Shown here piece by piece: positions 4,451 through 22,173 of a stretch of DNA of 64,000 nt. A program made the translations under genes and the position numbers. The DNA is from a virus (Duplodnaviria > Caudoviricetes). Under the pieces are notes generated by a model. It ran no database searches, was not told the origin of the DNA, and saw only the letters and a list, made by a program, of their open reading frames with translations. Position 1 is the first letter of the stretch, and the number at the start of each line of letters is the position of its first letter. Location of the stretch: positions 788 to 64,787 of IMG/VR virus record IMGVR_UViG_3300012232_000003; one strand, written 5' to 3'.

Positions 4451-4649
4451 GCTTATTTTGGGCTTGACGGTCATCGCGATCAACATCATCACCAGTGCCA
4501 CCGTGCTCTGGTACGTGTATCATTGGACTACGAATGTCTACAACCTGCTCGAGGAGATACGTAATGGCCTCCGCAAGAGTCCGAACAAAGAAGATCCGAA
4601 AAGAACATGGCCTCCCCCGATCGAAGCCAGTCGCTGGCGACGACGATGA
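4440..4649 (+). CDS. Small membrane protein
   Basis: Hydrophobic N-terminus LILGLTVIAINIITSATVLWYVY. Confidence 0.5.
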   Translation: MSAELILGLTVIAINIITSATVLWYVYHWTTNVYNLLEEIRNGLRKSPNKEDPKRTWPPPIEASRWRRR

Positions 4650-4650
4650 T

Positions 4651-5253
4651 ATGGCTGACGTCATCGCGGCTGGCGCCTCGGTCCGCGATGGCTACCTCGA
4701 GCAGCTTGGTCAGCTGGTGAACGAGTATATCGCGCTCGAGTCGGAGATGACTGCTTTGCTTGAGCAGGCTGAAGCTCGCAACAAAGAGCTCTTCGACCTC
4801 AAGACACGTCGATTGCCCGACGTGATGAAGGCTGCTCAGATCGATCACCAGCGTATGACTTCAGGTCATGAGGTCTCGTTGATGACGAGCATCCGCGCCA
4901 GCTTTCCCAAGGATCCGGACAAGCGTGCCAAGGCTATCAAAGCCCTTACCGATCTCAACGGCTTGGACCTGATCAAGCATGTGATCAGCATGTCGTTCGA
5001 TCGCGATGAGCAAGAGAAGGCCCAAGCTTCGTTCGAATTTCTCAAGATCGCCGGGCTCACACCCGACAACAAGCAAGCTATCCACGCCGGCACCTACGCG
5101 GCTTGGGTCAAAGAGCTTCTCGATGATGAGAAGATGGCACCGAAGCTGTTGGCACGTCTTGACGACCTCGGCGTGTTCATGCAAAGCATGGCTGAGGTGA
5201 AAGCTCCGAAGCAGAAACGAAAGGTGAAACATGGCAACGCAGAAGCAGCCTAA
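4651..5253 (+). CDS. Conserved-looking phage hypothetical protein (coiled-coil N-terminus)
   Basis: Start refined to ATG 4651; strong codon bias; lies upstream of the SSB-like gene. Confidence 0.7.
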   Translation: MADVIAAGASVRDGYLEQLGQLVNEYIALESEMTALLEQAEARNKELFDLKTRRLPDVMKAAQIDHQRMTSGHEVSLMTSIRASFPKDPDKRAKAIKALTDLNGLDLIKHVISMSFDRDEQEKAQASFEFLKIAGLTPDNKQAIHAGTYAAWVKELLDDEKMAPKLLARLDDLGVFMQSMAEVKAPKQKRKVKHGNAEAA

Positions 5254-6055
5254 GGCACTCAAGGTTCAAGAGGAACCGGGAGCCTCCGATGTTGCACTCC
5301 TATCCCCAGAGGAACTGACCGAGCTGGGTCAACACAGCGGCAAGGGTATGGAGGCCGTCAAGTCGACCGACCTGGCGATGCCGTTCCTCACGATCCTGCA
5401 GGTGGGAAGTCCCCAGGTCAAGGAAGGCGGCGGCGAGTACGTTGAAGGTGCCAAGCCTGGGCTCATCTTCAACACGGTGACCAACGCGACCTACGACAAG
5501 ATCGTCGTGGTGCCCGCGTCCTACAAGACCAGGTACACCGAGTGGAAGCCCAGGGACAGCGGCGGCGGCCTCGTTCGTGATTGGGGTGAGGACGGCTCGA
5601 TGTACATGAAGATCGCGCCTGATGACCGCGGCCGTAGGATCACACCCACCGGAACCAACATCGTCGAGTCGGCCACGATCTTCGGCCTGCTGCATCCCAG
5701 CCAAGAGCGGGTGATCATCGCCTTCAGCTCGACGCAGCGCAAGAAGGGTCGCGGTTGGTTGACGATGGCACACAACATCCGCCTCGATGACGGCAAGGGT
5801 GGAAAGTTCAACCCGCCGTTCTTCTACATGTCCTACGAGCTCTCGGTCGTGGGCGAGAGCAACCAAAAGGGCGACTGGTACGGCTGGCGGATCGTACCGC
5901 ACAAGCCCACGAAGGGTCCCAGCAAGATCGAGGGTGGCCCTGCGATCTTCGCCGAAGCGCTCAAGCTCGCCGAGGACGTCAAGTCACAGAAGGTTTCCGC
6001 ACCGGTCGCGCTGATCGGCAAGGACGCCGAGACGGCAGACGAGATACCATTCTGA
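5231..6055 (+). CDS. Putative single-stranded DNA-binding protein
   Basis: Aromatic/Gly-rich core (PFLTILQVGSPQV, YTEWKPR, GDWYGW) and an acidic C-terminal tail ending DEIPF. Confidence 0.65.
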   Translation: MATQKQPKALKVQEEPGASDVALLSPEELTELGQHSGKGMEAVKSTDLAMPFLTILQVGSPQVKEGGGEYVEGAKPGLIFNTVTNATYDKIVVVPASYKTRYTEWKPRDSGGGLVRDWGEDGSMYMKIAPDDRGRRITPTGTNIVESATIFGLLHPSQERVIIAFSSTQRKKGRGWLTMAHNIRLDDGKGGKFNPPFFYMSYELSVVGESNQKGDWYGWRIVPHKPTKGPSKIEGGPAIFAEALKLAEDVKSQKVSAPVALIGKDAETADEIPF

Positions 6056-7327: not shown

Positions 7328-7619
7328 CACGGGCACCCAACCCCGCTCGTGCTGAGGATCGGTCGACCTAGCGACCCCGCATCCGGGTCGACCGGTCTTA
7401 TCCTCTGAGTATCGTGATGGGCACAGGGTCACATGTCGACCAGGGGATTTGACATAGGCCCTTCAGTAGGCTCTGCCCTGTGTCCTTCAAGATGCTCGTC
7501 CAAGGAAATGATGTTTACATCTCATAGAGGTAGGTATACTCTCCCATAGTCGCTACGGTGAATGGTCACTACAGTGATACACTAGCAGTAACCGGGCCTA
7601 GGCCCAGTAGGAGAGTAAT

Positions 7620-8132
7620 ATGACTACCATCAAAGTTAGAGCAGCACGTCTGCCACGCATCCACGTCAACGAAAGCATGACCTGCCCCAAGACGGGCCTC
7701 CTCGTCTTGCGTCCCAATAGCACATCACCCGAACGTGGCCCCACTGAAGCTTGGGTACGTGATCCCTTTTTGCGGGTGCTTAAGGCTTGGCTGACCATCG
7801 GCTACTATGCTGGGATTACCGGCAAGTCCCTGGTCCGTGCCCTTTACGAAACGGTAAAGGATCCGGGACAGTACCTCTCATACGGTGAACACTTCGAGAA
7901 GTGGGAGAGGCGCGGAAGCTCGGGTGTGCTATATCATGAGTGCCTGTCCGAGGGTTGGGAACCGGACTTCGAGGTAGCCCGTCAGCTCTGGATCATCCAC
8001 CGCGATGACAGGTCTGTTGACCTGCGGCAGCTCATGACTGAGATGCGTGGCGTCGAAACTGGAACCTCCTTCGAGGAGGAACTTGCTGAGGTTGCACGGC
8101 GACACAACCGTGAGATCGTCATCGGCAAGTGA
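7620..8132 (+). CDS. Hypothetical protein
   Basis: A 170-aa ORF with a GGAG RBS. Confidence 0.7.
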   Translation: MTTIKVRAARLPRIHVNESMTCPKTGLLVLRPNSTSPERGPTEAWVRDPFLRVLKAWLTIGYYAGITGKSLVRALYETVKDPGQYLSYGEHFEKWERRGSSGVLYHECLSEGWEPDFEVARQLWIIHRDDRSVDLRQLMTEMRGVETGTSFEEELAEVARRHNREIVIGK

Positions 8133-8193
8133 CGGTCGACATCACCAGTGGGACGGTATATTATCCTCCCGCTGGTGATCAACGAGGTGTCGA

Positions 8194-9318
8194 GTGAAAG
8201 CGTTGGGTGTGTATATCTTCGCGGGTGGGTTCACCCAGGGTCTCAAGAAGCACGCCAAGGTGCTTGCCCATCTCGAGGACAAGCCGTACCCGGGCACCGA
8301 GACTAGTCAACTCAACCACCCTGAAGTGCCCATCTACTTTCGACAAGACAAACCGACGTGGGATGAGTTACACCAATTCAACAACAAAGTTGACTTGGTG
8401 TATGCCAATCCCCCTTGTGCCATCGTGTCGCCCATCGGCCGCTCGATGATGAACGGCGCCAGCTCTTGGCAAACAGATCCGCGGCTGTCGTGCTGGACAC
8501 GAACCTACCAGACCATCGAGCTGAACCCAAGCATGCTCATGATTGAGTCGGTACCTGGGATGCAGTCCCCTAAGAAGGCACGACCCTTCATCGATGGGCT
8601 CGCCAAGGACGCCATGAGCCGCGGGTACAGTGTGACGTATATCATGCACGACGGCGGGCTCCTGGGGCTACCGCACCATCGTAGGCGTTTTCTATTCGTG
8701 GCCCACAAGCATATCTTGCGGTACCCGAAGGTCACCAGGAGAAAGGTACCCACCGTAGGTGAGGTCCTTTCTCGTGTTGAGGATCCCGGTTGGTTCCGCC
8801 CCATGACTCGCGACCAGAAGATGGTGTGGCGCAAGTTGAAGCTCGGCAAGGTGAAGGATGGCAACGGTGGGTACTATCCTCGGTGGGAAAAGTTCAAGTC
8901 GGCCTGGTGTCGGATCCATAATGAGCCAGCTAGTGGACCTACGGATCGTCACGGACGCCCGCTCTTCATGCATTCGCGTCTGCATCACGATCGGCCTGCT
9001 AACGCTTTTGTGGGCAACTATCTCTTCCATCCTACTGAACCTCGCCATCTTGGTCACAACGAGATGAAGGCGCTTTGCGGCTATCCTCTGGGCTACCAGA
9101 TTGCTGGTAGGCCAGGGAAAGCCGCAACCCTCTTAGCTCAGGCCGTCCTCCCACCCGTGGGCGATTGGTTCGGTCGCATGGCGATGATGACCCTGGATGC
9201 GCGCGCTCGGTTCAATCGACCCACGGCCCAGGTACTCGATCTGATGCTTCGGCCTAAGACCGACTACAAGCCCATCGTGAAAGATGCCTTTGATGATGAA
9301 GGGGAGTGCGATGAATGA
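8194..9318 (+). CDS. Divergent C5-cytosine DNA methyltransferase-like protein
   Basis: Motifs in order: I YIFAGGFTQG, IV ANPPC, VI IESV, VIII GLPHHRRRFLFVA, IX RHLGHNEMKALCGYP, X LAQAVLPP. Confidence 0.8.
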   Translation: MKALGVYIFAGGFTQGLKKHAKVLAHLEDKPYPGTETSQLNHPEVPIYFRQDKPTWDELHQFNNKVDLVYANPPCAIVSPIGRSMMNGASSWQTDPRLSCWTRTYQTIELNPSMLMIESVPGMQSPKKARPFIDGLAKDAMSRGYSVTYIMHDGGLLGLPHHRRRFLFVAHKHILRYPKVTRRKVPTVGEVLSRVEDPGWFRPMTRDQKMVWRKLKLGKVKDGNGGYYPRWEKFKSAWCRIHNEPASGPTDRHGRPLFMHSRLHHDRPANAFVGNYLFHPTEPRHLGHNEMKALCGYPLGYQIAGRPGKAATLLAQAVLPPVGDWFGRMAMMTLDARARFNRPTAQVLDLMLRPKTDYKPIVKDAFDDEGECDE

Positions 9319-9880
9319 GGTGGACACCCGAGACGGTGAAGACCAGGATCAGGGAGCTGCCTGTCCTGAGAACGGCCCCATCAGCATACGCACTGAAGTA
9401 CCGACCGTCCCCCGATTGGCAGATCGACGGACGGGCCAAAGGATTACGTACAATTGCGGCGAGCCATCTATCATCGACTATACAAACTGGAAGGGTGTTC
9501 GCCGACGGCGTAAGGTTCAGCCGCTCACCATCTTCTGGGGATGCTCCCTCTATCATCACACCCTACAATGGTTTCTCGAGGCTTATGACCTTGAGGACTT
9601 GAACCTCTTGAAGTTCTTTCCACTCGCGAACATCCACGGTTGGGAGACCTATGATGAAACCCGAGAACGCCAACTGCTTCATGAACCTACCAAAGTTGCC
9701 GCCGGTGAAGTTTGGGAAGGATCAGTACCCGCTCTTCACGAGGATCAGCATCGAGACAAGCAAGGTGTGCAACCGGACGTGCTGGTTCTGCCCGGCGGAG
9801 CAGCGGGGCAAGAAGCAGAAGCTGATGACGGATCAGCTGTACAGCAAGATCCTCCACGAGTTGGCGGCCTTGAATTTTGA
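9311..9880 (+). CDS. WYL-like domain protein (frame and extent uncertain)
   Basis: DYTNWKGVRRRRKVQPLTIFWG...QWFLEAYDLE...FFPLANI resembles phage WYL-like proteins. It overlaps ORF 9315-9602 and the radical SAM gene. Confidence 0.45.
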   Translation: MNEVDTRDGEDQDQGAACPENGPISIRTEVPTVPRLADRRTGQRITYNCGEPSIIDYTNWKGVRRRRKVQPLTIFWGCSLYHHTLQWFLEAYDLEDLNLLKFFPLANIHGWETYDETRERQLLHEPTKVAAGEVWEGSVPALHEDQHRDKQGVQPDVLVLPGGAAGQEAEADDGSAVQQDPPRVGGLEF

Positions 9881-10592
9881 CGGCGTCGTCCAATGGTTTT
9901 TCATCAACGAGCCACTGATGGACAAGAGATGGCCGGAGCGCATAGCTGCTCTTCGGTCACAGGTTCCACGATGCACCATCCACCTCACCACCAACTGGGA
10001 CTTGATGGCCAAGCGCTCTGATGACGAACAGGTCGCTACCATCAAAGCACTCTACGAGGCTGGCGTCAACTCGTTCAACATCAACGACTACGATGAGAAA
10101 GGCTATGGTCGGATCATTCCGATCGCTGCCACCGAACTGAACAAGTGGCAGCACACCAAGGTGACCGTAAGCAACCACTGCTGGAAGAAAATCGGACCTA
10201 GGAAGAGGGTCCTCAGCTGCGGTCCGCTGCCTAAGACCCTACACACCCGCACCGGTTATACCAAGCTCGAGAACATCGAGACCTTCTGGAAGGGTGGCAG
10301 TCAACGTGGCAAGAAGCACTGCCCACGCCCCTTCCGGCATATTGTCGTTCAATATGACGGCAAGGTGCCGCTGTGTTGCACGGTGGATCCCACCAACGCC
10401 GAGGTCGAATGGATGGCTGACATCAACCAGGTATCGCTCGTTGAGGCATGGAACTCGAAGCGCATGTGGGAATACCGTTCGCTACTCCAGGACGGCAAGC
10501 GTGCAGGTCAATGCGCCAAGTGCGACGCGAAGTTCAGCTTCCCCAGCATCGTACGGCGTGTCGACCTGGGCAAGGTGAAAGCGAACGTATGA
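9651..10592 (+). CDS. Radical SAM enzyme with SPASM domain
   Basis: CNRTCWFC (CxxxCxxC), INEPL, and a C-terminal CPRPF...DGKVPLCC...CAKC. Confidence 0.9.
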   Translation: MMKPENANCFMNLPKLPPVKFGKDQYPLFTRISIETSKVCNRTCWFCPAEQRGKKQKLMTDQLYSKILHELAALNFDGVVQWFFINEPLMDKRWPERIAALRSQVPRCTIHLTTNWDLMAKRSDDEQVATIKALYEAGVNSFNINDYDEKGYGRIIPIAATELNKWQHTKVTVSNHCWKKIGPRKRVLSCGPLPKTLHTRTGYTKLENIETFWKGGSQRGKKHCPRPFRHIVVQYDGKVPLCCTVDPTNAEVEWMADINQVSLVEAWNSKRMWEYRSLLQDGKRAGQCAKCDAKFSFPSIVRRVDLGKVKANV

Positions 10593-10711
10593 CCTGGCAA
10601 GCAAAGGCACTCCTATGGATCTGCGCACTCTCACTGCTTGGCGCTACGCTGACCTACCAGTGGGAACACCGTTCTGTGACCCCACGACAACCACCGGCTT
10701 GGTACCGCTGA
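10589..10711 (+). CDS. Small membrane peptide
   Basis: MTWQAKALLWICALSLLGATLTY, with an ATGA overlap. Confidence 0.4.
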   Translation: MTWQAKALLWICALSLLGATLTYQWEHRSVTPRQPPAWYR

Positions 10712-10743
10712 TTAACCAAGCCTGGCGAGACTTCTGTCTCAAC

Positions 10744-10857
10744 ATGCCCAGGTGTGATTCGATCGAAGAGCTCGATGACTACGAGTCCTACTTCCTCGTG
10801 CTGGGTGTGATGGCCATCACCGCCACAACGTTCAAGCTGCTGCAGGTGCTCCTGTGA
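10744..10857 (+). CDS. Small membrane peptide
   Basis: Hydrophobic C-terminus and a GTGA overlap with the GT gene. Confidence 0.35.
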   Translation: MPRCDSIEELDDYESYFLVLGVMAITATTFKLLQVLL

Positions 10858-12128
10858 AGATCGGATATGCAAAGTTGGGTCGCAGCTTCCCTGTTCGCTA
10901 CTTCAAGTCGAGCAGCCTCGGTGGTGATCAAGCCGTAGTTCGCCTGCTCGACTACCTTCGACGTGATCACGAGGTTCACCTGATCGGTCCCAACCAAGGC
11001 GTGGACGATGCGCGGATCTATAGGTTCGTGCCCGAGAACACGGTGAACCATTGGATGCCTGGCGAGGCGTTCGGCGATGTGCCTACGGTTCCCGATGAGG
11101 ATCGTAAACCCGATGCGCCATCCTACAAGCAATTTCTGAAGACACTCGATGAGGGCATCAAACGTCTTCCGAAACTCGATGCTTGGGTTATCTGGCTTGG
11201 GCAACACAGCTCGGTGTCGAGCTTCATTCCGCCAGAGCGAGACCTCGAAAAGGCTCACGTGACCCCGCTCATGAGCCAAATCAATTACGTATATCCGATC
11301 TTGTACATGCTCAACCACCTCAAGATCAAACCGATCTGGCTTCATCCCGACGCACGAAACATCCTCAAGAGCCGTGACCTGTGGGACAACCAGCAACGGC
11401 AGGTCCTCTCTCAGTACGACCGAGAGCATGAGATCAAGTCATGGGATCCACGAGAAGGTACTCGCATAAGTTCCCTCGTGTATCGCTATGCTGGTCTCGA
11501 GTTGCTCGTCATGCCAGAGACTGGATACGACAAGACTGACTTTGATGAGGTCAGCGTTGGTCCCGAGCGCCTAACATTCGGTGTACTGACCAATGAGGGC
11601 CTCGAGAAGAAGCACAATTCACGTCTGGCCAACGTGCGTGACTGGTGCACACCGCTTCAAGATCTGGACGGGTGGGAGCTCGTGGGACACTTTTCGGCCA
11701 AAAGTCAGGTAGCGCTTGGTCGAAAGGTCACCCCTGTACCAAATACCCAAGTGCGTGATACACTGCGTCGGTGGAAGTGCACCATCACGTTCCCACCCAC
11801 CGCCGATGCCCACTCGACGAAGTGGGTATCAGCCAAGCCATGGGAGTGTTTCGCGGCAGGGACTCTTTGCTTCAAGCATCCACTCTACGATACCCAGGGG
11901 CACATTTATGGAAGTCGGATGCCCCAAGAGCTTAGGGAGTTCCTCTGTGTTACGGCGCCTCGGGAACTTCGTGATAAGGTGGAGTTGGTCGCGTCACGCC
12001 CGGGACTATATCGATCCCTTGCACGATTACAGTTCGATTACGTCAGCATCACAATGCGAGACTGGAAGGGTGGGCAGCGGGCAGTTGACGAGGCTATACA
12101 GGAGATGGCAAGTGAACGACGCACCTAA
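10854..12128 (+). CDS. GT-B glycosyltransferase resembling T4 DNA beta-glucosyltransferase
   Basis: MKIGYAKLG start, WLHPDAR, and C-terminal WVSAKPWECFAAGTLCF..YDTQGHI...VTAPRELRDKVELV...SLARLQFD, which parallels the T4 BGT C-terminus as I recall it. Confidence 0.7.
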   Translation: MKIGYAKLGRSFPVRYFKSSSLGGDQAVVRLLDYLRRDHEVHLIGPNQGVDDARIYRFVPENTVNHWMPGEAFGDVPTVPDEDRKPDAPSYKQFLKTLDEGIKRLPKLDAWVIWLGQHSSVSSFIPPERDLEKAHVTPLMSQINYVYPILYMLNHLKIKPIWLHPDARNILKSRDLWDNQQRQVLSQYDREHEIKSWDPREGTRISSLVYRYAGLELLVMPETGYDKTDFDEVSVGPERLTFGVLTNEGLEKKHNSRLANVRDWCTPLQDLDGWELVGHFSAKSQVALGRKVTPVPNTQVRDTLRRWKCTITFPPTADAHSTKWVSAKPWECFAAGTLCFKHPLYDTQGHIYGSRMPQELREFLCVTAPRELRDKVELVASRPGLYRSLARLQFDYVSITMRDWKGGQRAVDEAIQEMASERRT

Positions 12129-12864
12129 CGGCAACGGTCAACAGATCATCGACTCAACGTATGCTTTCTACATGGAAGACATGCGCGCATTTCATGAACG
12201 GTTCAGTCTGCTTCCCGAGCCGGACACCTACCTGGATCATCACGCTGTGTTCAGGCAGAACTTTCTGCTCGAGGAGCTCAATGAACTGAGCACCGCCTTC
12301 GCGAAGGGCGACCTCGTATCGTATCTCGACGCGCTTGTCGACCTCGACTATGTGACCCTGGGCACTGCGTTCTTGATGGGCCACTACTCGTTGTTCGTGA
12401 ACAACGACTCGACCCAAGTCTACATCAATCACTTGCAGAAGGATCGCTTCAAGGGTCACTCGCTTGCTGCGCCACAGCCACCCATCGCAAGTCAGTACGT
12501 GTTCTTTCTCGGGGGCATCTACACGCAGTTGGGAAGTGCGTTCCACTCGATGATGATGGCACGTCGTGGTGGCAACCGCACCGAGCACTTCACCAAGACG
12601 TGCTTGTCGCTGCGTGACATGCATCGCAACATCGTCGATCATTCGTTCCTATGTGGCCTTGACTTTGTCGAGGCCTGGGATCGTGTGCATCGTGCCAACA
12701 TGTCAAAGGTCAGAGCCGAAAAGGCCGGCGACTCCAAGCGTGGATCCAAATTTGACGTGGTGAAGCCCTCAGGTTGGACTGCTCCTGACCTGACCGATCT
12801 GGTGGGCGATCCAGCCCACGACCTTCCTCCGTTCCTGTTGGAGCGTCAAGCCTCTAGTACGTAA
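12112..12864 (+). CDS. MazG-like/PRA-PH nucleotide pyrophosphohydrolase (candidate dCTPase/dUTPase)
   Basis: FHERF, LEELNEL, LDALVDLDYV and VHRANMSK...VVKPSGW. Start refined to GTG 12112. Confidence 0.8.
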   Translation: MNDAPNGNGQQIIDSTYAFYMEDMRAFHERFSLLPEPDTYLDHHAVFRQNFLLEELNELSTAFAKGDLVSYLDALVDLDYVTLGTAFLMGHYSLFVNNDSTQVYINHLQKDRFKGHSLAAPQPPIASQYVFFLGGIYTQLGSAFHSMMMARRGGNRTEHFTKTCLSLRDMHRNIVDHSFLCGLDFVEAWDRVHRANMSKVRAEKAGDSKRGSKFDVVKPSGWTAPDLTDLVGDPAHDLPPFLLERQASST

Positions 12865-12875
12865 GGAGTGTGCGT

Positions 12876-14015
12876 ATGATCATCGTGATTGAGGGCGCTG
12901 ACGGCGCCGGCAAGACGACCCTCGCACAAGCAATGCTCAGGCATTGCCCGGGCGAAGCTCACTATATCCACGCGACCCGTCCCGAGAAACAATGGCCCTA
13001 CGCGACTGACTTGCTTCACCAGGCTGTTGACAACGAGCTGCGGGGTTATCACACGATCCTCGATCGGCACTGGGTCAGCGACAACATCTATTACACGATC
13101 GACCCCAACGAGGAGGCACGATCGGGCATCCACGTCAGGCGTCAAGACTCTGTGTTGAGTCGGTTCGGTGCGTTCTATATCCTCTGTGCACCCGATCCCA
13201 CCCGTCTTATGACCGAGTACGTCAAGCTCAGTGAAGGTCGAGCGGAGCTATACGGTAAAAAGTATGAGGGTATGCGACGAGTGATGGACAAGTACCAGCG
13301 CCTATGGTTTGGTGCTGAGACCAACTCGGGATCGCAGTACACCGATCAGATGATCATTAGTGATCCCTGGAACTCACGACCACTCACCATACTCTATGAT
13401 CGCTTTGAGGTGAGCAACGTCGAGCAGTGGGCTCGATTGGCATGGCAACGTATGATGTTCGAGACCAAACCCTTCATCGATGCTGATCCGGTACGCAACC
13501 TCATCGCTGATGACGAGGTGCTCAACCTCAGCGGATCGTTGTTGACGTGCAAGGCACTCCTGGTGGGTGAGCGCGCGAGCAAGATCAAGTTGCCCATGCA
13601 CTGGCCGTTTTATTCCAATAAGGGGTCGGCAGGTTACCTCACCAAATCATTGCACGAGGGCAACATTCACGAGCGAGATGTGGCCCTCGTGAACGCCTAC
13701 TCGACACTCAACATGAGCACTCGACCTCTCGATGTGTGCGTCAAGTGGCTTCGTGCTCACCGCCCTGAGGTCAAAGTGATCGCTCTGGGCAAGGAGGCGA
13801 CCTACGTTCTTGACACCTTAGGTCACAGTAACTATGTCATGGTGCCACACCCACAGTGGGCTCGGCGCTTCGATCATCATGGCCAGTATCATACGATGCT
13901 CAGGAGTGTTATCGGTGAACATCGATCAGGAATTGAAATTCAGGGACGTACTGTTCAGGCTGTGGGCGTACGGCAAGAAGTCGAAGCCCCGGGGACTACT
14001 GATCAGCGAGCTTGA
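12876..14015 (+). CDS. dNMP (thymidylate-type) kinase fused to uracil-DNA glycosylase-like domain
   Basis: N-terminal IEGADGAGKTT and ILDRHWVSD; C-terminal LLVGER...WPF, LVNA, VIALGKEA and VPHPQW. Confidence 0.75.
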   Translation: MIIVIEGADGAGKTTLAQAMLRHCPGEAHYIHATRPEKQWPYATDLLHQAVDNELRGYHTILDRHWVSDNIYYTIDPNEEARSGIHVRRQDSVLSRFGAFYILCAPDPTRLMTEYVKLSEGRAELYGKKYEGMRRVMDKYQRLWFGAETNSGSQYTDQMIISDPWNSRPLTILYDRFEVSNVEQWARLAWQRMMFETKPFIDADPVRNLIADDEVLNLSGSLLTCKALLVGERASKIKLPMHWPFYSNKGSAGYLTKSLHEGNIHERDVALVNAYSTLNMSTRPLDVCVKWLRAHRPEVKVIALGKEATYVLDTLGHSNYVMVPHPQWARRFDHHGQYHTMLRSVIGEHRSGIEIQGRTVQAVGVRQEVEAPGTTDQRA

Positions 14016-14724
14016 GAACTTCAGCTATACGTTCCCACCATACTGCCGGTGGATGAACTTCGAGGCACGCAAGCTCAGCCTCAAATACATCAAGGCCGAG
14101 CTGCGCTGGTACCTGCACGGTGATCCACATGATCTTAGCATCGCCAGGTATGCACGACTGTGGGAGACCCTCGTCGATCACAGCGGCAAGGTCAATAGCA
14201 ACTATGGCCACTATGTTTTTCGTCGAGCCCAATTTCAATGGGTCATCAACGAACTCACTCGTGACCGTGACTCACGTCGGGCCAGCATGGTGATCCTGCA
14301 GCCATATCATATGACTCCCGACAATAAGGACGTGCCGTGCACCTACGGCTTGAACTTTCGGATCCGTGAAGGCAAGCTCAACTGCTCGGTTCACATGCGC
14401 TCCCAGGACGCGATCTGGGGCCTGGGTAACGACCTGCCGTTCTTCAGCGTGGTACAAGAGCTCGTGGCGGTGATGCTCTTGGTACCGATGGGTGACCTTC
14501 ACCTAGCGGTCGACTCATTTCACGTGTATGAAAAGCACTTCGATATGCTTGAGCAAATCGTCAATCACAACTCAAAGTGGACTACCATCGAGTGCCCCCG
14601 CATCTACTCGATCCGAGAGGCAACCCGACTCATCTGCGACAATCCAAACCTCGAGTTTGACTTCACCAAGTGGCTCTATGGAGGCAAGATCAGTGACGAC
14701 GCATCAACGGCCAGACCCACATGA
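13915..14724 (+). CDS. Thymidylate synthase superfamily enzyme, dCMP hydroxymethylase-like
   Basis: DRDSRRA, catalytic PC, and MRSQDAIWGLGND, with Asp at the pyrimidine-specificity position as in T4 gp42. GTG start with AGGAG. Confidence 0.8.
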   Translation: MNIDQELKFRDVLFRLWAYGKKSKPRGLLISELENFSYTFPPYCRWMNFEARKLSLKYIKAELRWYLHGDPHDLSIARYARLWETLVDHSGKVNSNYGHYVFRRAQFQWVINELTRDRDSRRASMVILQPYHMTPDNKDVPCTYGLNFRIREGKLNCSVHMRSQDAIWGLGNDLPFFSVVQELVAVMLLVPMGDLHLAVDSFHVYEKHFDMLEQIVNHNSKWTTIECPRIYSIREATRLICDNPNLEFDFTKWLYGGKISDDASTARPT

Positions 14725-15232
14725 GACCTGGCTTCTCGTCGCCAACACCATCGCTGCGCGTGGGACGTGCAAGCGACGTCGTGTGGGGTGTGTGCTTACC
14801 GACATTGATGGTTACGTGCTCAGCACCGGGTTCAACGGGGTGGGACCGGACCAGCCACATTGTATCGATACTCCCTGTGCCGGCGCAAGCTTTCCGACTG
14901 GCCAAGGCCTGGGCGAGTGCGAAGCAATCCACGCCGAGCAGAACGCGCTGATCACATGTGCTGATGTCCGCAAGGTTGCTTTCATCTATTCAACGGTCGC
15001 ACCATGCAAACATTGCACCAAGATGTTGTTGCGCACCCAGGCCAGATCGATCTACTTCATCGACGACTACGAGCAGTCGGGACGAGAACTGTGGGAACGT
15101 GCTGGCCGCAATTGGATCAAGCACTCGACCGCGATGCTCGGAGTCTCGAGGTACTTCAGCATCCCGCATGAATATCCCGTGGATCCCATACAGGCCAGCA
15201 TCATCGCTACATCGCTGTCGAGGATCGGGTGA
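14693..15232 (+). CDS. dCMP deaminase
   Basis: RGTCKRRRVGCV, STGFNG, HAEQNA and PCKHC. GTG start after GGAGG. Confidence 0.88.
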   Translation: MTTHQRPDPHETWLLVANTIAARGTCKRRRVGCVLTDIDGYVLSTGFNGVGPDQPHCIDTPCAGASFPTGQGLGECEAIHAEQNALITCADVRKVAFIYSTVAPCKHCTKMLLRTQARSIYFIDDYEQSGRELWERAGRNWIKHSTAMLGVSRYFSIPHEYPVDPIQASIIATSLSRIG

Positions 15233-17349
15233 AGCGCAGGTATCGCAACCTCAATCAACTACCCCTGGAGTTGAATGACCTTGACTCATCGTGGGTAGCT
15301 CGAGAGCTACCTGACCTGCACGGTCCTCAGGTGTGGGACCTCGAGACGTTTGATCCGTATCTCAAAAGCCTTGGTCCCGGCTGGGCTTTCAAAGACCGCA
15401 AGAAGTATGGCTATGTTGCAGGGTTTTCAGTCGCGGCTGACAACGTTCCCGACGGTCTTTATGCTCCCATTAGACACGAGGGTGGTGACAACTTAGCTGA
15501 GGATGCTGTACTACGATGGGCTCGTTGTCAGCTCGCCAAGCCGGTTCCCAAGATCTTCGCCCATGCATCATATGACCTAGGCTGGTTGCATACCGAGGGT
15601 CTCGACGTCAAGCCCGAACATGTCGAGGATATTCAGATCCAGGGACCGCTACTTGACGAGTATCGTTGGGGCTACTCGCTCAACGCATTGTCCCTCGAAC
15701 ACCTTCACGAGGGCAAGGACGAGGAAGGCCTTGAGAAAGCACTCATCGCTTTCGGTTTCATCGATAAGGGAAAGCCAGATAAGGGCGGGCTCGCCAAGCT
15801 GCCAGCACGATACGTAGGAACCTATGCTGAAGCTGACTCGCGACTCACTCGTGGTGTATGGAACATACAGCGAGAGCTCATAAAGGCTGAGGACCTGACA
15901 CAGGTCTATGAGCTTGAATGTAAGATGATCCACGTGCTCGTGGCGATGCGAGAACGTGGTGTTCGTATCAATCAAGACCGCGTCGAGCAGCTCATTAAGC
16001 AATGGAAAGCTGAGATGCAGGAGATGATCCTGCGCGTATATCAGTGGACCAACATACCCATCAGCGCCTGGGATAGTAAAAGCATCTCCGAGGCATTGAA
16101 ATATTGTGGGATCGACGCGCTGAAAACAACCAAGGGAAAAGACAGCATTGTCGCTGAGTGGCTTGAGGGATTTAATGACCATGAGAACGAGAAAGTTCGC
16201 GTGGTCACTAAGGCCATTAGTCGACTTCGCAAGCTGGACAAAGCTGTCAACACCTTCCTCAAGAACTTCTTTATCGATCATCTTGTTGACGGCCGGGTAC
16301 ATGTACAGTTCAATGCCCTTAGGTCTGATGAGGGTGGTACTATCAGCGGGAGGTTGAGCTCATCAGACTTTAACGTGCAACAGATACCAATCCGCGACGA
16401 GGAGATCGGGCCAATCATACGCTCATGCGTAGAACCCGAAGAGGGAAAGAAGTGGTTGGCTGCTGATTATGCCAGTCAAGAGCCTCGTCTCACGGTTCAC
16501 TGGGCAGTGAAGGCTGGCTTCCATAGCGCAATCGAAGCAGCCAAACAATATCGGGATAATCCTGAAACAGACTACCATCAATGGATCGCTGAGATCTGTG
16601 GCATACCCAGACGACCAGCCAAAACGATCAACCTTGGTGTAGCCTATGGTATGGGTGGACCCAAGCTCTGCAGGTCCCTGGGCTTGCCCACCGCGTGGAT
16701 CATGAAGACTCTTCGTGACGGTACAACCCGTGAGATCGAGATAGCTGGTCCTGAGGGTCAAGCAATCTTAGACAAGTACAATCGCGGCGCGCCTTTCATT
16801 ATGAAGCTATACAACATGGCCAAGACCCGCGGACAACAGAAGGGTTTCATTCGCACACTGTTCGGTCGCAAATGTCGCTTCCGCAAAGGACCGATGGGAT
16901 GGGAAGACGCACGTGTTGGTTTGAACAAGCTCATCCAGGGAAGTGCCGCCGATCAAATGAAAGCAACGATGATCAAACTCTTCTACGAGTATGGCATCGT
17001 GCCAATGGTCACCGTGCACGACGAGCTGGGCTTCAGCGTCCAAGATGTACATGAGGCCCGTGGCATTATAGAGATTATGGAGAACGCAGTTCAGCTCGAA
17101 GTCCCCACCGTGGTCGACCTCAAGCTTGGGCCAAATTGGGGATCCGTAAAGAAGGTACCACGGCCACAGGCGTGTAACCTTCTCTACCGATCGATCGTTC
17201 TGTTAAGAGATCGCAAACAGGTGTATGATATCCTGGCCCAACCAGGAGAACGTCGTGCCCCGAAAGCTAAGTCAAAAGCAAGCCGAGGTCGTCCGCCAAA
17301 AGCTGGCAAGGTCGGCACTCGGAAAACCCGCGCACGTAAGCGAGCGTGA
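15229..17349 (+). CDS. polA: DNA polymerase family A with 3'-5' exonuclease
   Basis: Exonuclease motifs DLET, HASYD and YAEAD; polymerase motifs ADYASQEPR, RRPAKTINLGVAYGMG and TVHDE. Confidence 0.93.
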   Translation: MKRRYRNLNQLPLELNDLDSSWVARELPDLHGPQVWDLETFDPYLKSLGPGWAFKDRKKYGYVAGFSVAADNVPDGLYAPIRHEGGDNLAEDAVLRWARCQLAKPVPKIFAHASYDLGWLHTEGLDVKPEHVEDIQIQGPLLDEYRWGYSLNALSLEHLHEGKDEEGLEKALIAFGFIDKGKPDKGGLAKLPARYVGTYAEADSRLTRGVWNIQRELIKAEDLTQVYELECKMIHVLVAMRERGVRINQDRVEQLIKQWKAEMQEMILRVYQWTNIPISAWDSKSISEALKYCGIDALKTTKGKDSIVAEWLEGFNDHENEKVRVVTKAISRLRKLDKAVNTFLKNFFIDHLVDGRVHVQFNALRSDEGGTISGRLSSSDFNVQQIPIRDEEIGPIIRSCVEPEEGKKWLAADYASQEPRLTVHWAVKAGFHSAIEAAKQYRDNPETDYHQWIAEICGIPRRPAKTINLGVAYGMGGPKLCRSLGLPTAWIMKTLRDGTTREIEIAGPEGQAILDKYNRGAPFIMKLYNMAKTRGQQKGFIRTLFGRKCRFRKGPMGWEDARVGLNKLIQGSAADQMKATMIKLFYEYGIVPMVTVHDELGFSVQDVHEARGIIEIMENAVQLEVPTVVDLKLGPNWGSVKKVPRPQACNLLYRSIVLLRDRKQVYDILAQPGERRAPKAKSKASRGRPPKAGKVGTRKTRARKRA

Positions 17350-17654: not shown

Positions 17655-18176
17655 ATGAACACGTTCATCGGAAATGATCCCAACGACTATACGGTCCCGA
17701 CGCTCCTGGGGATGCTCAACGAGCACCTCGAGGCTCAAGGCAAGAAGCCTCGCAAGGGGTGGTGGGAATCCAAGGTCAAGCTCTTCGAGCTTGTGAACAA
17801 GACGCTCGAGGAAGCGGCCGAAGGCACAGCTCCACCAGTCGAGGATTACAACGGTCATGTTGCTCCGGTGACCAATGGTCACGCAGCTGAAGGCATGCGG
17901 CATCACCTCAACTACGACGAGGCGATCAAGTTCATCCGCAAGCATCGCCGCCGCCGTCACATCTATGTGCGCATCGAAACGACGGTGACTGCCGAGGGAG
18001 GCTCGCCCTACCAGATGGCAGGCTACCTGCGGTCGAGTGCCAAGCAGGCACGTGCCTTCGTGGCGACACTCATCGGCGATGAACATCGCAAGAAGATGGG
18101 TCACACCTGCGAGTTTCGGATCGAACCAAGCGACGTCGTGCCGAAGGGCAAGGACGGCGTGATGTTCGTCGGCTGA
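17655..18176 (+). CDS. Hypothetical protein
   Basis: A 173-aa ORF preceded by GGAGACTGAC. Confidence 0.7.
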   Translation: MNTFIGNDPNDYTVPTLLGMLNEHLEAQGKKPRKGWWESKVKLFELVNKTLEEAAEGTAPPVEDYNGHVAPVTNGHAAEGMRHHLNYDEAIKFIRKHRRRRHIYVRIETTVTAEGGSPYQMAGYLRSSAKQARAFVATLIGDEHRKKMGHTCEFRIEPSDVVPKGKDGVMFVG

Positions 18177-18841
18177 TGGAGGAACCAGTGAGCAATAAGA
18201 CCGTCACGATCAACACGCCAACACTCCAGCTCGTTCATGAGCTGGAGACAGCGTACAAGTACTTCAACCGGTTCTTGTTCGAGAACAAGTTGAAGCCGTG
18301 CCTGATCCTCATGCACCGCAAGCGCAGTGCCTTGGGCTACTTCTGGGCAAAGCGTTGGCAGCAAGGAGAGGAGGAGAATGCGCAAGTGTTTCATGAGCTG
18401 GCGCTGAACCCTGATCACCTGAAAGGTCGTCACATCAAGGACACCCTCTCGACTCTTGTCCACGAGCAAGTTCACCTCTGGCAAGAGGATTTCGGGAAGC
18501 CACCGAAGGGCCCCGGGCACAATAAGGAATGGGGCGACAAGATGGAGACCTTGGGCATCATGCCGTCCAGGACAGGACAACCTGACGGCAAGCGGACTGG
18601 TCGCCGGGTGACGCACTACATCATTGCTGGCGGACAGTTCGAGTCGGTTTGCGATGATCTCATCAAAACTGGCTTCACCCTATCGTGTGTCTCCTGGCCA
18701 CAGCTGAAGATCGCCAAGGCCAAGAAAAAGAAGATGACCTATGAGTGCCCTGGGTGCGAGGCCAAGGTCAGGGGCAAGGAGGGATTGCTTCTCGTCTGTG
18801 GAACTTGTTCCACTGATGAGGAGCAGGTAGCTTTCAACTGA
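18176..18841 (+). CDS. SprT-like zinc metalloprotease with C-terminal Zn finger
   Basis: LVHEQVH (HExxH), GHNKEWGDKMETLG, YECPGC...CGTC. Confidence 0.85.
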   Translation: MEEPVSNKTVTINTPTLQLVHELETAYKYFNRFLFENKLKPCLILMHRKRSALGYFWAKRWQQGEEENAQVFHELALNPDHLKGRHIKDTLSTLVHEQVHLWQEDFGKPPKGPGHNKEWGDKMETLGIMPSRTGQPDGKRTGRRVTHYIIAGGQFESVCDDLIKTGFTLSCVSWPQLKIAKAKKKKMTYECPGCEAKVRGKEGLLLVCGTCSTDEEQVAFN

Positions 18842-18862: not shown

Positions 18863-18900
18863 ATGGGTCGCTGTTGAAGGCGACCCATCATTTGTTGTTT
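18863..18900 (+). terminator. Putative intrinsic terminator
   Basis: ATGGGTCGC-N8-GCGACCCAT followed by a T-rich tract. Confidence 0.5.
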
Positions 18901-19458: not shown

Positions 19459-20124
19459 ATGTCCAACGTCAAGCTCGTCTGGATCACACCCAATGCCGAC
19501 GACCTCGTCACCCGAATTGCTCGGGTTAGCAATCCCGCCGGCCAGGAAGCCAACGTTGCTCCTGAGAAGTTGATCTCGCACTTCCTCACCTCAGATCCAC
19601 CGCACTGGTCGCCGTTCGATATGGTCTGTGCGTGCCTCGAAGTCACTACGACCAGGGACATCGCACACCAGGCGATCCGCCATTGGAGCTTTCGGTTTCA
19701 GGAGTTTTCACAACGGTATGCGACCGTGGACCGTTTGCCTGAGTCACCATCTCGCGAAGCAAGGAAACAGGACAAGACCAATCGGCAGCACAGCCTCGAG
19801 CTTCCAGCCCACGAGCATTGGCTTCAAGAAGAGTGGGATATCAGGCAGCAGGAGGTACGTGCTGTCTCAGCCAAGGCTTACGATTGGGCCATAGACATGG
19901 GTCTCGCCAAGGAGTGTGCTCGAGTCGTGTTGCCCGAGGGTCTCACACCCACGCGCTACTACATGCAGGGCACCCTCCGTTCCTGGTTGACCTACTGCCA
20001 GGTGCGCACCCACATGAGCACACAGAAGGAACATCGTCTCATCGCCGAGGAGGCATCGATTGTCTTGCGATTGGCGGTGCCTATCATTTGGGAGGCTGCA
20101 GCACTTGCGGGAATGAGCATATGA
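19459..20124 (+). CDS. thyX: FAD-dependent thymidylate synthase ThyX
   Basis: IARVSNP, HWSPFDM, RHWSFRFQEFSQRY, AKECARVVLP, LRSW and TQKEH. Confidence 0.92.
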   Translation: MSNVKLVWITPNADDLVTRIARVSNPAGQEANVAPEKLISHFLTSDPPHWSPFDMVCACLEVTTTRDIAHQAIRHWSFRFQEFSQRYATVDRLPESPSREARKQDKTNRQHSLELPAHEHWLQEEWDIRQQEVRAVSAKAYDWAIDMGLAKECARVVLPEGLTPTRYYMQGTLRSWLTYCQVRTHMSTQKEHRLIAEEASIVLRLAVPIIWEAAALAGMSI

Positions 20125-20477
20125 GAACCATCGTCAAGACCGGTGTCGTACTGCTCATCAATGAATATGATCCATATTCAAGCGACAAGATACCGGCAGC
20201 TGAGCTTGGTGATGTTGGGGTCGGGAACAATTGCTTCACCATATATGGTGATATGCACGTGATAGGACAATGTGTTGTGCTTTATGTACCCAACGACCAA
20301 GTGCCCTGGCCCAAGGTACATGGCACACTGAGCCTTGTCGGAAAGTATTTCTACAGGCACGCTGAGCCCTACAGCACGATCGTACTCGAGGGACAGCGCA
20401 TCGCCGTCGAGCGAGACGCCCTTCACGAGATCGACCTCGAGACCTTTGTCCGCGCCGGTGGTCGGGTGCGTGTCTAG
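20121..20477 (+). CDS. Hypothetical protein
   Basis: A 118-aa ORF from ATG 20121, overlapping the thyX stop. Confidence 0.55.
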   Translation: MRTIVKTGVVLLINEYDPYSSDKIPAAELGDVGVGNNCFTIYGDMHVIGQCVVLYVPNDQVPWPKVHGTLSLVGKYFYRHAEPYSTIVLEGQRIAVERDALHEIDLETFVRAGGRVRV

Positions 20478-22173
20478 AGCCGAGACCATCGTCGAGCTCT
20501 TTCCTACCCACGGCGTGGTCCGTGGCAGGCTTGACTCGTTCATATTCAAGATAGCCAACGCACTCCCCGACAAGAAGGAGTGGAACCGTGGTCAGCTCAA
20601 GTTCGAATTGTCCGAGGGCAACCTTGTCCTGCTACGCGATAAGCTCGAACACGCCACGTGGAAGACCCACACCATCTCGCCAAAAAAGCGTGTGGTTCCC
20701 GACAAGAAGCTTCCACCTGATCTGATGAAGTTCAGTCGGCCACCACGTGAAGGTCAGGCTGAAGCCTTTGAGAAGTTGCGTCACCTCGATGGCGCAGCAA
20801 TCTTTATGGACATGGGGACCGGCAAGTCATACGTCGCCATCCATCTCGCAGCATGGTGGTGGGCTTCAGGTCTCATCAACCGTGTGCTGCTCATCGCACC
20901 CAGTGAAGTCGAGCGTCAATGGTTCACCGAGCAGTTGCCCAATAACGCACCACCCTGGCTCAACTGGTACGGGATCGCCACCAAAAAGAAACGGCTTGTT
21001 GAGAAGTGGATGAAGGGCCCCCTGGTCGATCGACCACATGAACTTGCATGGTGGTTCCTGAACTTCGAGAAGATCCAGCGCAAGGCTGGATATGAACGAT
21101 GCAAAGAATTTGTCGAAGGTGGCCAGACGTTGATCCTCGTCGACGAGTCCACTGGCATCAAAACCCCAAAGGCCAAGCAAACGAAGTACGTGACGCACCT
21201 CAGAGACGCGTCGCACAAACGACTCATCCTCTCGGGTCGTCCTACGACCAAGGGGCTCGAGGATCTCTTCTCTCAGTTCCGGTTTCTCAACAAGGACATC
21301 CTAGGGATCACCTCCTACACCGCCTTCAAGCGGCGTTACTGTCAGATGGGTGGGTGGGAAGGAAAGCAGATCGTTGGCTACCAAGACGTGGAGGATCTGC
21401 TCGCGAAGATCGAGCCCTACACGTTCACCATGCAGAAGACCAGCGAGTACCCATCCACGTATCGCACGCGACTGCACACGTTGAACCCCGAGCAGAAGCG
21501 CATCTACAAAGAGCTCAAGGCTGACCTCTTTGCTTGGGTAGGTGAGGCCAAGGTTGCTTTGATCCAAGAGGACCGCGAAAACTACAACGTGTACTGTGCC
21601 AACGCCGCCGTCGCCTTGGTACGCATGCAACAGGTCACCTGCGGATACATCCAGGATAAGGACGAGGATGGCAACAAGCGAGTCACCATCCTCAGCACCG
21701 TCAGATCTGAACTGACCGCTGACCTGGTTGAAGAGGCTGGTAATCAGAAGGTCATCATCTACTGTGCGTACCATCCTTGCATTGACCTGGTCTGCGAGGC
21801 GCTTGACAAGAGAAATATCAGATACATCGAAGTGTCGGGTCGAACCCGAAAAGCACGCAGTGATGACGTCGACCTCTTCAAAGCAGGCAAGGTTCCCGTG
21901 ATGGTTGGCACAGCAGCAACCGGAGGCATCGGCTTGGATCTCTCGGTCGCCTCGGTCACCATCTATTTCTCGAACACCAACTCGAGCGAAGACCGCGAGC
22001 AATCCAAGGCTAGGACCGATCGCATCGGGCAAACACGTGGCGTCACCTACGTGGACATCATCGGCTCGCCCGTGGACAAGAAGATCATTGAGTCCAACGA
22101 CGTGAAGAAAACCATCGGCGATCTCGTGATGAGCCTCAACCCAAAGGATCTCGATCTTGAAACCTTGGATTAA
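20470..22173 (+). CDS. SNF2-family (SF2) helicase
   Basis: MDMGTGKS, VDES, LSGRP, GGIGLDL and QSKARTDRIGQ. Start refined to GTG 20470. Confidence 0.9.
   Translation: MSRAETIVELFPTHGVVRGRLDSFIFKIANALPDKKEWNRGQLKFELSEGNLVLLRDKLEHATWKTHTISPKKRVVPDKKLPPDLMKFSRPPREGQAEAFEKLRHLDGAAIFMDMGTGKSYVAIHLAAWWWASGLINRVLLIAPSEVERQWFTEQLPNNAPPWLNWYGIATKKKRLVEKWMKGPLVDRPHELAWWFLNFEKIQRKAGYERCKEFVEGGQTLILVDESTGIKTPKAKQTKYVTHLRDASHKRLILSGRPTTKGLEDLFSQFRFLNKDILGITSYTAFKRRYCQMGGWEGKQIVGYQDVEDLLAKIEPYTFTMQKTSEYPSTYRTRLHTLNPEQKRIYKELKADLFAWVGEAKVALIQEDRENYNVYCANAAVALVRMQQVTCGYIQDKDEDGNKRVTILSTVRSELTADLVEEAGNQKVIIYCAYHPCIDLVCEALDKRNIRYIEVSGRTRKARSDDVDLFKAGKVPVMVGTAATGGIGLDLSVASVTIYFSNTNSSEDREQSKARTDRIGQTRGVTYVDIIGSPVDKKIIESNDVKKTIGDLVMSLNPKDLDLETLD

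Follow-up and report, generated by a model that had tools for sequence, protein, structure and literature searches.

A phage gene block predicted to produce glycosylated 5-hydroxymethylcytosine, with a BtrN-like radical SAM enzyme that may edit the sugar

The gene block and its setting

The DNA examined here is a stretch of 64,000 nucleotides (the window) that makes up nearly all of a 64,787-bp IMG/VR virus record (IMGVR_UViG_3300012232_000003, Caudoviricetes), and the direct terminal repeats of that record mark it as the complete genome of an uncultured phage. Between positions 8194 and 15232 the window carries a single, tightly coupled run of genes on the + strand, in which a candidate pathway for glycosylated 5-hydroxymethylcytosine (hmC) is joined by a predicted radical S-adenosylmethionine (SAM) enzyme of the BtrN type that may act on the attached sugar. 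The genome has no close DNA relative among 50,697 GenBank phage records, and the sole match of the block in that set is a 140-nt stretch of its MazG-like gene, shared with Microbacterium phages.

The block opens with a gene for a divergent cytosine-C5 methyltransferase-like protein of 374 amino acids (8194–9318, PF00145), followed by a small, weakly WYL-like open reading frame (orf9311; 9311–9880, phrog_3715 and weak WYL scores) and by the 313-residue radical SAM enzyme with its BtrN-like twitch domain (9651–10592, PF04055 and PF13186). An 80-residue protein with a hydrophobic C-terminus and no family match (10615–10857), conserved only in the close relative L013 (59% identity), is encoded between the radical SAM gene and that of a 424-residue glycosyltransferase with a GT-B fold (10854–12128), which predicted structure and synteny liken to the β-glucosyltransferase (BGT) of phage T4. 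Further downstream lie genes for a MazG-like all-alpha NTP pyrophosphohydrolase of 252 amino acids with an insertion (12106–12864, PF01503), a 381-residue fusion of a Tmk/YorR-like kinase with a uracil-DNA glycosylase (UDG)-like domain (12870–14015; PF02223, with PF03167 below its cut-off), a thymidylate synthase (TS) homologue bearing a dCMP hydroxymethylase signature (13918–14724; PF00303 and PDB alignment) and a dCMP deaminase (14678–15232, PF00383). The gene for a family A DNA polymerase (PolA; 15229–17349, + strand, PF00476, E = 9e-46) is translationally coupled to the block, and from 9311 to 17349 neighbouring open reading frames overlap or leave gaps of 22 nt at the most. An earlier note on this DNA, made from the letters and their open reading frames, had joined several of these components into a possible cytosine hypermodification pathway; each component that it named is present on the + strand according to the list of open reading frames and the family scans, with weaker support for the UDG-like domain.

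Just 5' of the block, a sigma-70-like promoter match agrees with the consensus at 10 of 12 positions (8136–8164, + strand), the number of such sites not being above the shuffled expectation. The first terminator-like hairpin that follows it on the + strand, a consensus match only, is found at 18863–18888.

Nucleotide-level enzymes

The TS homologue scores 76.5 bits against PF00303 (cut-off 24.3), and its best matches in the PDB are the CMP hydroxymethylase MilA (3e-18) and the dCMP hydroxymethylase of T4 (1.4e-16), those to ThyA being weaker (best 3e-11). Its start is placed at the GTG codon at 13918, since L013 has a stop codon upstream of it. In the alignment to T4 gp42, DVPC stands opposite DFMC at the catalytic cysteine (C146 of ThyA, C148 of T4), a residue that is invariant among the aligned relatives, and MRSQDAIWGLGND stands opposite MRSNDVVFGFRND. 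The motif KDVPC places an aspartate at ThyA position 143, three residues before the catalytic cysteine and aligned with an aspartate of T4; in MRSQD...GLGND, Asp169 is kept and Asn177 is replaced by aspartate, GLGND being aligned with GFRND of T4.

According to Lee et al. (NAR 2026, PMC13326640), N177D selects dCMP, an acidic replacement of L143 (L143D/E), which is tied to water access, accompanies hydroxymethyl and not methyl products, and D169N identifies a newly discovered group, the flavin-dependent 5-hydroxy-dCMP synthases encoded by RB69, DLP3 and RL38JI. With aspartate at positions 143, 169 and 177, the residue signature fits a putative 5-hydroxymethyl-dCMP synthase and fails that of a 5-hydroxy-dCMP synthase, and the T4-like core logic that the earlier note had read from the letters is upheld by L143D, the retained D169 and N177D. 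5-Hydroxycytosine of the RB69 gp48 type was ruled out as the starting base by the retained Asp169 (MRSQD, as in T4), and D169N is absent both from this protein and from all relatives examined. The TS homologues of the related viral contigs L002, L006 and L010 have the same Asp143/Asp169/Asp177 pattern; that of L016 keeps Asn177 and hence looks dUMP-specific.

The MazG-like protein (PF01503, 32.5 bits against a cut-off of 21.3; phrog_671, 1.8e-23) is presumed to be a dCTPase or dUTPase, and the deaminase is recognised by PF00383 (61 bits), phrog_174 (7.5e-32) and the ComEB family (1.1e-16). Downstream of the block, at 19459–20124 on the + strand (PF02511, E = 3.4e-30), lies the separate ThyX gene that the earlier note had pointed out; its product is presumed to be a flavin-dependent thymidylate synthase and the likely source of dTMP.

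The kinase of the fusion protein occupies residues 1 to about 195 and the UDG-superfamily-like domain about 200–350, followed by an unconserved C-terminal tail. The kinase half belongs to PF02223, and the family profile matches YorR (1.7e-4). In the published arabinosyl-5-hydroxycytosine systems, YorR is the top structural match of the DLP3 gp78 'nucleotide kinase', which is encoded beside the glycosyltransferase and TS homologue of that phage, and RB69 gp45 matches thymidylate kinases (PMC13326640). The second half scores 22.1 bits against PF03167 (E = 1.7e-4), just below the cut-off of 24.3; a 79%-identical homologue (P0049) has a precomputed PF03167 domain, and the family profile weakly matches family-4 UDG, UdgX and 'SPO1 DNA polymerase-related' entries (E = 0.011). 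The fusion family comprises 13 proteins, all from metagenomes and with no counterpart among GenBank phages, and the motifs LLVGE, WPF, NA and HPQxARRFxHxG are invariant in its C-terminal half. The Glu, Asn and His motifs (LLVGE, NA and HPQ) presumably occupy positions resembling those of family-4 UDGs, and a UDG-superfamily fold is likely for this half on sequence grounds.

The BGT-like glycosyltransferase

The 424-residue glycosyltransferase matches no Pfam family at E ≤ 0.01 and is not a sequence member of PF09198 (GT63); likewise, none of its 27 homologues (0/27) has a precomputed Pfam domain. An AlphaFold2 model built on the alignment of this 27-protein family (pLDDT 91) retrieved T4 BGT entries at ranks 1 to 5 in Foldseek (E = 3e-8). 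In VIA-align, the model was superposed on T4 BGT with a Z score of 23.9 and a root-mean-square deviation of 3.6 Å over 313 of the 344 BGT residues, as against scores of about 20 for GT4 and other GT-B enzymes, and in BFVD it reached a TM score of 0.73 to a protein annotated 'DNA beta-glucosyltransferase'. The description of this protein as BGT-like in the earlier note is thereby borne out structurally, though not as membership of PF09198. The enzyme is presumed to be a candidate DNA hmC glycosyltransferase, with T4 BGT as the nearest solved structure to the model.

Among GenBank phages the glycosyltransferase has a single, weak match, in a Pseudoalteromonas phage. No gene for a sugar nucleotidyltransferase (NTP transferase) was found in this genome, so that the enzyme presumably draws on a nucleoside diphosphate (NDP)-sugar of the host.

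The radical SAM enzyme and the overlapping frame

The radical SAM enzyme carries the motif CxxxCxxC (C39, C43 and C46) together with the auxiliary-cluster cysteines C223, C241/C242, C287 and C290, which align to the C-terminal cysteines of BtrN; all of these are invariant in 17 homologues. The protein matches PF04055, PF13186 (40.6 bits) and the NCBIfam model for twitch-domain radical SAM enzymes. When searched against the PDB, the family profile finds BtrN only (E = 1e-26), in a match that extends over the N-terminal core as well as the C-terminal twitch domain. The AlphaFold2 model (pLDDT 81) likewise has BtrN (4m7t) as its top Foldseek match (E = 1.3e-13, TMt 0.78), followed by RiPP maturases and the sulfatase-maturating enzyme anSME at E values of at least 3.6e-7. 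The substrate of BtrN, a radical SAM dehydrogenase, is an aminocyclitol in which a secondary alcohol is oxidised, and the phage protein is predicted, from profile and model together, to be a twitch-domain alcohol dehydrogenase of the BtrN type. Where BtrN has one cluster-ligand cysteine, the phage family has an extra invariant one, forming a CC pair. In the radical SAM epimerase NeoN a cysteine serves as the hydrogen donor, and epimerisation is for this reason kept as an alternative outcome of the reaction.

The core family of the radical SAM enzyme amounts to about 35 clusters at 50% identity, inside 158 representatives at E ≤ 1e-30. A pattern scan with its profile over 185,579 species genomes, which detects fairly close relatives only, returned no relative. 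Among GenBank phages there is one match, of 27% identity, in an uncultured faecal phage whose flanking genes are matched by none of the other query proteins. Viperin (pVip) was considered as an identity for the enzyme and ruled out, the match being confined to the radical SAM core at 17.7 bits and not extending over the full length.

The WYL-like scores of orf9311 are weak (phrog_3715, E = 1.7e-9; Pfam WYL, E = 0.013; PADLOC WYL, 9.7e-4) and concern about residues 64–129 of the frame as listed from 9284; comparison with the relative L008 puts the start at 9311. The 3' 230 nt of orf9311 overlap the radical SAM gene, and the frame stays open across the overlap both here and in L008. Substitutions between the two in the overlap number 3, 2 and 10 by position of the radical SAM frame, a third-position bias in that frame only, and upstream of the overlap they number 23, 12 and 41 by position of the orf9311 frame, again with a third-position bias. 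Since the substitutions in the overlap follow the radical SAM frame alone, the 74-residue tail of orf9311 looks unselected. A fusion or frameshift joining the WYL-like and radical SAM proteins was ruled out on this basis and by the radical SAM homologues, which begin at the same methionine; the apparent N-terminal extension of the L010 radical SAM enzyme is non-coding-like.

The C5-methyltransferase

The methyltransferase scores 56.3 bits against PF00145 (cut-off 22, covering 10–322) and 1.5e-20 against PADLOC MTase_II, and a phmmer search against the PDB gave no match. Motif I (FAGGF) and motif IV (NPPC) are both conserved. The altered motifs reported in the earlier note are real: motif VI reads ESV in place of ENV, motif VIII reads HHRRRF in place of QxRxR, with the two arginines kept and the glutamine changed to histidine, and motif X reads AQAV in place of GNAV. 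These altered motifs are common to the whole clade; ESV, the PC cysteine and the two arginines are invariant in the homologues from L004, L006, L008 and L010 and are seen in L002 too.

Relatives that have the radical SAM gene and relatives that lack it alike encode methyltransferases of this ESV type, at 20–29% identity, which is similar to that of PolA; inheritance together with the replication module thus accounts for their presence as well as functional coupling would. No TET/JBP gene was found in this genome. The ESV-type C5-methyltransferase recurs in genomes expected to hold little unmodified cytosine.

Gene neighbourhoods in related viruses

Contexts of the block genes in relatives were taken from scans of IMG/VR and JGI metagenomes and analysed with tblastn, blastp and Pfam. 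In L013, which is about 85% identical, the gene order is the same as in the block studied here. In the more divergent L014, from Tara Oceans, genes for a HAD phosphatase, an NTP transferase, the glycosyltransferase (37% identity), a kinase and the radical SAM enzyme (55%) are grouped together. L009/L015 carries an NTP transferase, a 294-residue protein without annotation, a 386-residue protein that matches the glycosyltransferase profile (hhalign probability 89%, E = 2.4e-6, 330 columns) and the radical SAM enzyme (44%). In the marine L016, the NTP transferase, the radical SAM enzyme (39%), an HbpS/GlcG-like protein (PF03928, E = 2e-36) and the glycosyltransferase are followed by an unannotated 299-residue protein and the dUMP-type TS homologue; the trio of NTP transferase, radical SAM enzyme and glycosyltransferase occupies 7372–10458 and the TS homologue 12045–12848, which suggests a version of the module for glycosylated 5-hydroxymethyluracil (hmU). 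L010 holds a TS homologue, PolA, an ESV-type methyltransferase, two unannotated proteins and the radical SAM enzyme (38%), whose upstream neighbour, a protein of 372 amino acids, resembles PF09198 clusters by the language-model features of the Atlas (0.95–0.96), a likeness to be taken as a lead only.

In these five divergent lineages (the studied phage with L013, L014, L009/L015, L016 and L010), over which the radical SAM enzyme shows 38–55% identity, its gene lies no more than two genes from that of a BGT-like glycosyltransferase, the call in L010 being the lead just described, and a sugar nucleotidyltransferase is present in three of the five. The glycosyltransferase also occurs without a radical SAM gene, in L002, L003, L004/5 and L006, where it is accompanied by NTP transferases (L002, L006), a HAD phosphatase (L002), kinases (L002, L006) and methyltransferases (L002, L004/5, L006). 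The TS homologue adjoins it in L002 and L006 and lies elsewhere on the same record in L003 and L004. The genes beside the glycosyltransferase in L002 (6190–7995), L014 (2617–4425) and L006 (9245–10678) include an NTP transferase in all three, that of L006 being 478 amino acids long with an extra C-terminal domain, and in L002 and L014 a HAD phosphatase and an unannotated protein of about 240 amino acids as well.

In the complete 66-kb genome L006/G005, the radical SAM profile finds nothing, and the methyltransferase, TS homologue, kinase, glycosyltransferase and NTP transferase are all present; the radical SAM gene is thus an addition to a module that exists without it. The combination singled out by the earlier note does recur: divergent viral contigs unite glycosyltransferase, TS homologue, kinase and methyltransferase, and the radical SAM enzyme is repeatedly encoded beside the glycosyltransferase, so that the grouping is more than chance. 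From these gene contexts, the glycosyltransferase is predicted to belong to a hydroxymethylpyrimidine module, and the radical SAM enzyme is an apparent optional add-on that travels with the glycosyltransferase whichever base is modified.

Proposed pathway and alternative explanations

The block is read here, with a probability of about 0.5, as a pathway in which 5-hydroxymethylcytosine is prepared before replication and a sugar is afterwards attached to it and edited. In this pathway, the TS homologue would convert dCMP to 5-hydroxymethyl-dCMP, as its family and signature residues indicate, and the Tmk/YorR-like kinase would phosphorylate the product; the MazG-like protein would clear competing dCTP, dUTP or both, and the dCMP deaminase and ThyX would provide dTMP, these roles being assigned by family. 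The adjacent PolA would incorporate the resulting hmdCTP, and the BGT-like GT-B enzyme, judged by fold and synteny, would decorate the 5-hydroxymethyl group in DNA with a hexose taken from an NDP-sugar of the host. It is considered probable, with good confidence, that the phage produces hmdCTP and that it glycosylates the hmC of its DNA.

The twitch-domain radical SAM enzyme, in view of its BtrN homology and its conserved adjacency to the glycosyltransferase, would then take a hydrogen from a carbinol carbon of the sugar, the sugar being either DNA-bound or part of the NDP-sugar donor. The secondary alcohol would become a ketone, as with BtrN, or the centre would be inverted, in which case the extra invariant cysteine next to the cluster ligand could give the hydrogen back. 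The product would be a glycosyl-hmC whose sugar differs from the donor sugar of the host, with the ESV-type C5-methyltransferase and the UDG-like domain in accessory roles. We infer this editing step from BtrN homology and linkage to the glycosyltransferase, and the balance of evidence tips slightly in its favour, whether it takes place on DNA or on the donor. The broader proposal, that a virus-restricted BtrN-like family edits the BGT-placed sugar on 5-hydroxymethylpyrimidines to give keto-, epimerised or rearranged glycosyl-hmC (glycosyl-hmU in the L016 type), is more tentative and is put at a little below even odds.

Several points weigh against this pathway. All enzyme functions in the block are inferred, and no aminotransferase, reductase or other enzyme that uses a keto-sugar is seen within the block. 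Elsewhere the radical SAM gene is accompanied by NDP-sugar genes, of which this genome is devoid, so that a role at the donor level would need a sugar nucleotide of the host. Over its central, substrate-facing third (about 119–199 of the profile), the radical SAM enzyme does not align to BtrN, and its substrate accordingly probably differs from that of BtrN. The best solved match of the MazG-like protein, a weak one, is the dUTPase DR2231 (E = 0.024). A C5-methyltransferase is hard to account for if hmC replaces every cytosine, and the replacement may therefore be partial or the model incomplete. Lastly, all lineages are uncultured contigs, and the synteny between them may in part stem from common ancestry within one phage group and not from functional coupling.

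The radical SAM enzyme might instead act on the base, with hmC (in the L016 type, hmU) oxidised at its 5-hydroxymethyl group to the 5-formyl form in an oxygen-independent counterpart of the TET step, which would leave a mixed formyl and glycosyl genome. Alcohol oxidation is familiar among twitch/SPASM dehydrogenases such as BtrN, and anSME, which works on a primary CH2-OH or CH2-SH group, is among the fold matches; the genome encodes no TET, and the co-occurrence of the radical SAM gene with both cytosine- and uracil-type TS homologues implies a target common to both, which the hydroxymethyl group fits as well as the sugar does. However, the gene adjoins a glycosyltransferase in every lineage seen, and a sugar nucleotidyltransferase in three, it is seen in no hydroxymethyl module that lacks a glycosyltransferase, and oxidation of the hydroxyl would abolish the very acceptor of that enzyme, so that base oxidation is rated improbable. 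More doubtful still is a pairing of the C5-methyltransferase with the radical SAM enzyme, in which 5-methylcytosine would be formed at residual cytosines and its methyl group then functionalised, as an anaerobic analogue of the methyltransferase/TET/glycosyltransferase pathways and a second, post-replicative route to the glycosyltransferase acceptor. Such pathways are established in phages (PMC8256090), the catalytic cysteine, glutamate and arginines of the methyltransferase are conserved, and its gene stands upstream of that for the radical SAM enzyme, at a distance of two genes in the studied lineage and of about 3 kb in L010; yet the ESV-type enzyme is also found where a radical SAM gene is missing, in the relatives L002, L004 and L006/G005, no methyltransferase was found around the radical SAM gene on the incomplete contigs L009, L014 and L016, and among characterised proteins the radical SAM enzyme is closest to a carbohydrate dehydrogenase and not to a methyl-activating enzyme.

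Alternatively, the DNA might hold ordinary glycosyl-hmC or bare hmC, with the radical SAM enzyme serving host metabolism, anti-defence or virion glycans and merely housed in an early or replication operon. Phage early regions do gather unconnected accessory genes, a separate block of glycosyltransferases and methyltransferases recorded by the earlier note in the head operon (52751–58957) could bear on the sugar nucleotides used, and the want of a downstream keto-sugar enzyme in the block speaks for the same view. Against it, adjacency to the glycosyltransferase is kept at 38–55% identity across five lineages of differing gene order, and the gene is embedded between DNA-modification genes in frames that overlap or nearly abut; an unrelated function is on these grounds considered unlikely. 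Sugar editing as the final step of an hmC pathway is accordingly retained as the preferred explanation. Of the extra enzymes that the earlier note had assigned to the modification, the radical SAM enzyme keeps its place, being conserved, BtrN-like and linked to the glycosyltransferase, while neither the C5-methyltransferase nor the UDG-like domain shows any tie to product chemistry. The end product that it had foreseen, a glycosylated and further modified cytosine, agrees with the radical SAM–glycosyltransferase linkage as far as a further modification is concerned, though its target is more likely the sugar than the cytosine. On the whole, what the earlier note had observed is confirmed, and its interpretation is supported in part.

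Comparison with known systems and significance

The block resembles the T-even glucosyl-hmC pathway (gp42, gp1 kinase, gp56 dCTPase, cd deaminase and BGT) in its TS homologue with Asp143 and Asp177 and Asp169 kept, its nucleotide kinase, its all-alpha NTP pyrophosphatase, its dCMP deaminase and its GT-B enzyme nearest to T4 BGT. The present phage differs in its 65-kb genome, its PolA replicase, its Pam3-like genes and its dTMP supply from ThyX; moreover, its kinase resembles Tmk/YorR and not gp1 and carries a fused UDG-like domain, the glycosyltransferase is about 70 amino acids longer and has no PF09198 match, and the radical SAM enzyme, WYL-like protein and C5-methyltransferase are additions. 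With BtrN, the 2-deoxy-scyllo-inosamine dehydrogenase of butirosin biosynthesis (4M7S/4M7T), the phage enzyme has in common the compact size, the CxxxCxxC motif and a four-cysteine auxiliary cluster in a twitch domain. Identity between the two is, however, only about 20%, the phage family has the CC pair and many invariant arginines and histidines, and its context is a DNA glycosylation operon without an aminotransferase partner.

Similarly, the arabinosyl-5-hydroxycytosine clusters of RB69, DLP3 and RL38JI (PMC13326640) share the TS homologue, the Tmk/YorR-like kinase, the GT-B enzyme and the dCTPase, and the HAD phosphatase and/or NTP transferase genes in L002, L006 and L014 recall the route of RB69 and DLP3 to a phage-made NDP-arabinose. 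In contrast to those clusters, D169N is missing here, the genome is without NDP-sugar genes, and the term 'radical SAM' is absent from the text of that paper. The phage systems that combine a C5-methyltransferase, a TET (5mYOX) enzyme and a glycosyltransferase (Burke et al. 2021, PMC8256090; bioRxiv 10.1101/2023.12.21.572611) also place a C5-methyltransferase and a BGT-like glycosyltransferase in one neighbourhood, and the 2023 survey (10.1101/2023.12.21.572611) found GT-B enzymes to associate mostly with thymidylate synthase homologues and extra sugar-modifying genes. Here, unlike in those systems, there is no TET/JBP and hmC would be made at the nucleotide level, and neither paper mentions a radical SAM partner. 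A radical SAM enzyme does occur in a phage pyrimidine cluster in the thymidine hypermodification of the Pseudomonas phage M6 type (PMC8989533), which likewise starts from the product of a TS homologue. That enzyme is set apart, by its description, in acting on an amino-acid adduct with a 5-hmdU kinase and an aGPT-Pplase as partners, both of which are absent here. A full-text search of the literature found no paper linking BtrN-like or other radical SAM enzymes to hmC glycosylation or to dCMP hydroxymethylase.

Glycosylated hmC serves phages as a counter-defence against restriction enzymes and CRISPR, and hosts respond with type IV nucleases that recognise the glycan. The block would represent the known kind of hmC glycosylation with a specific extra radical SAM step, a combination absent from the literature found. 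If this is true, radical SAM editing of a DNA-borne sugar would add a chemical layer to the arms race between phage and host, and it would be the first known case of radical SAM carbohydrate tailoring with DNA, or the sugar donor dedicated to it, as the substrate, and also a new class of DNA hypermodification. Radical SAM carbohydrate chemistry would then reach from antibiotics to nucleic acids and could yield enzymes for DNA labelling. The complete relative G005, in which the module is the same except that the radical SAM gene is missing, offers a natural control.

Neighbouring genes

Upstream of the block, at 4495–6055, two genes match a Pam3 gp33-like (DUF7307) and a Pam3 gp34-like family, which hints at kinship with Pam3-type phages. 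Downstream of PolA, the same replication region holds genes for a protein with an SprT-like metalloprotease domain (18176–18841) and an SNF2-family helicase (20335–22173), the latter being common to L003, L004 and L005.

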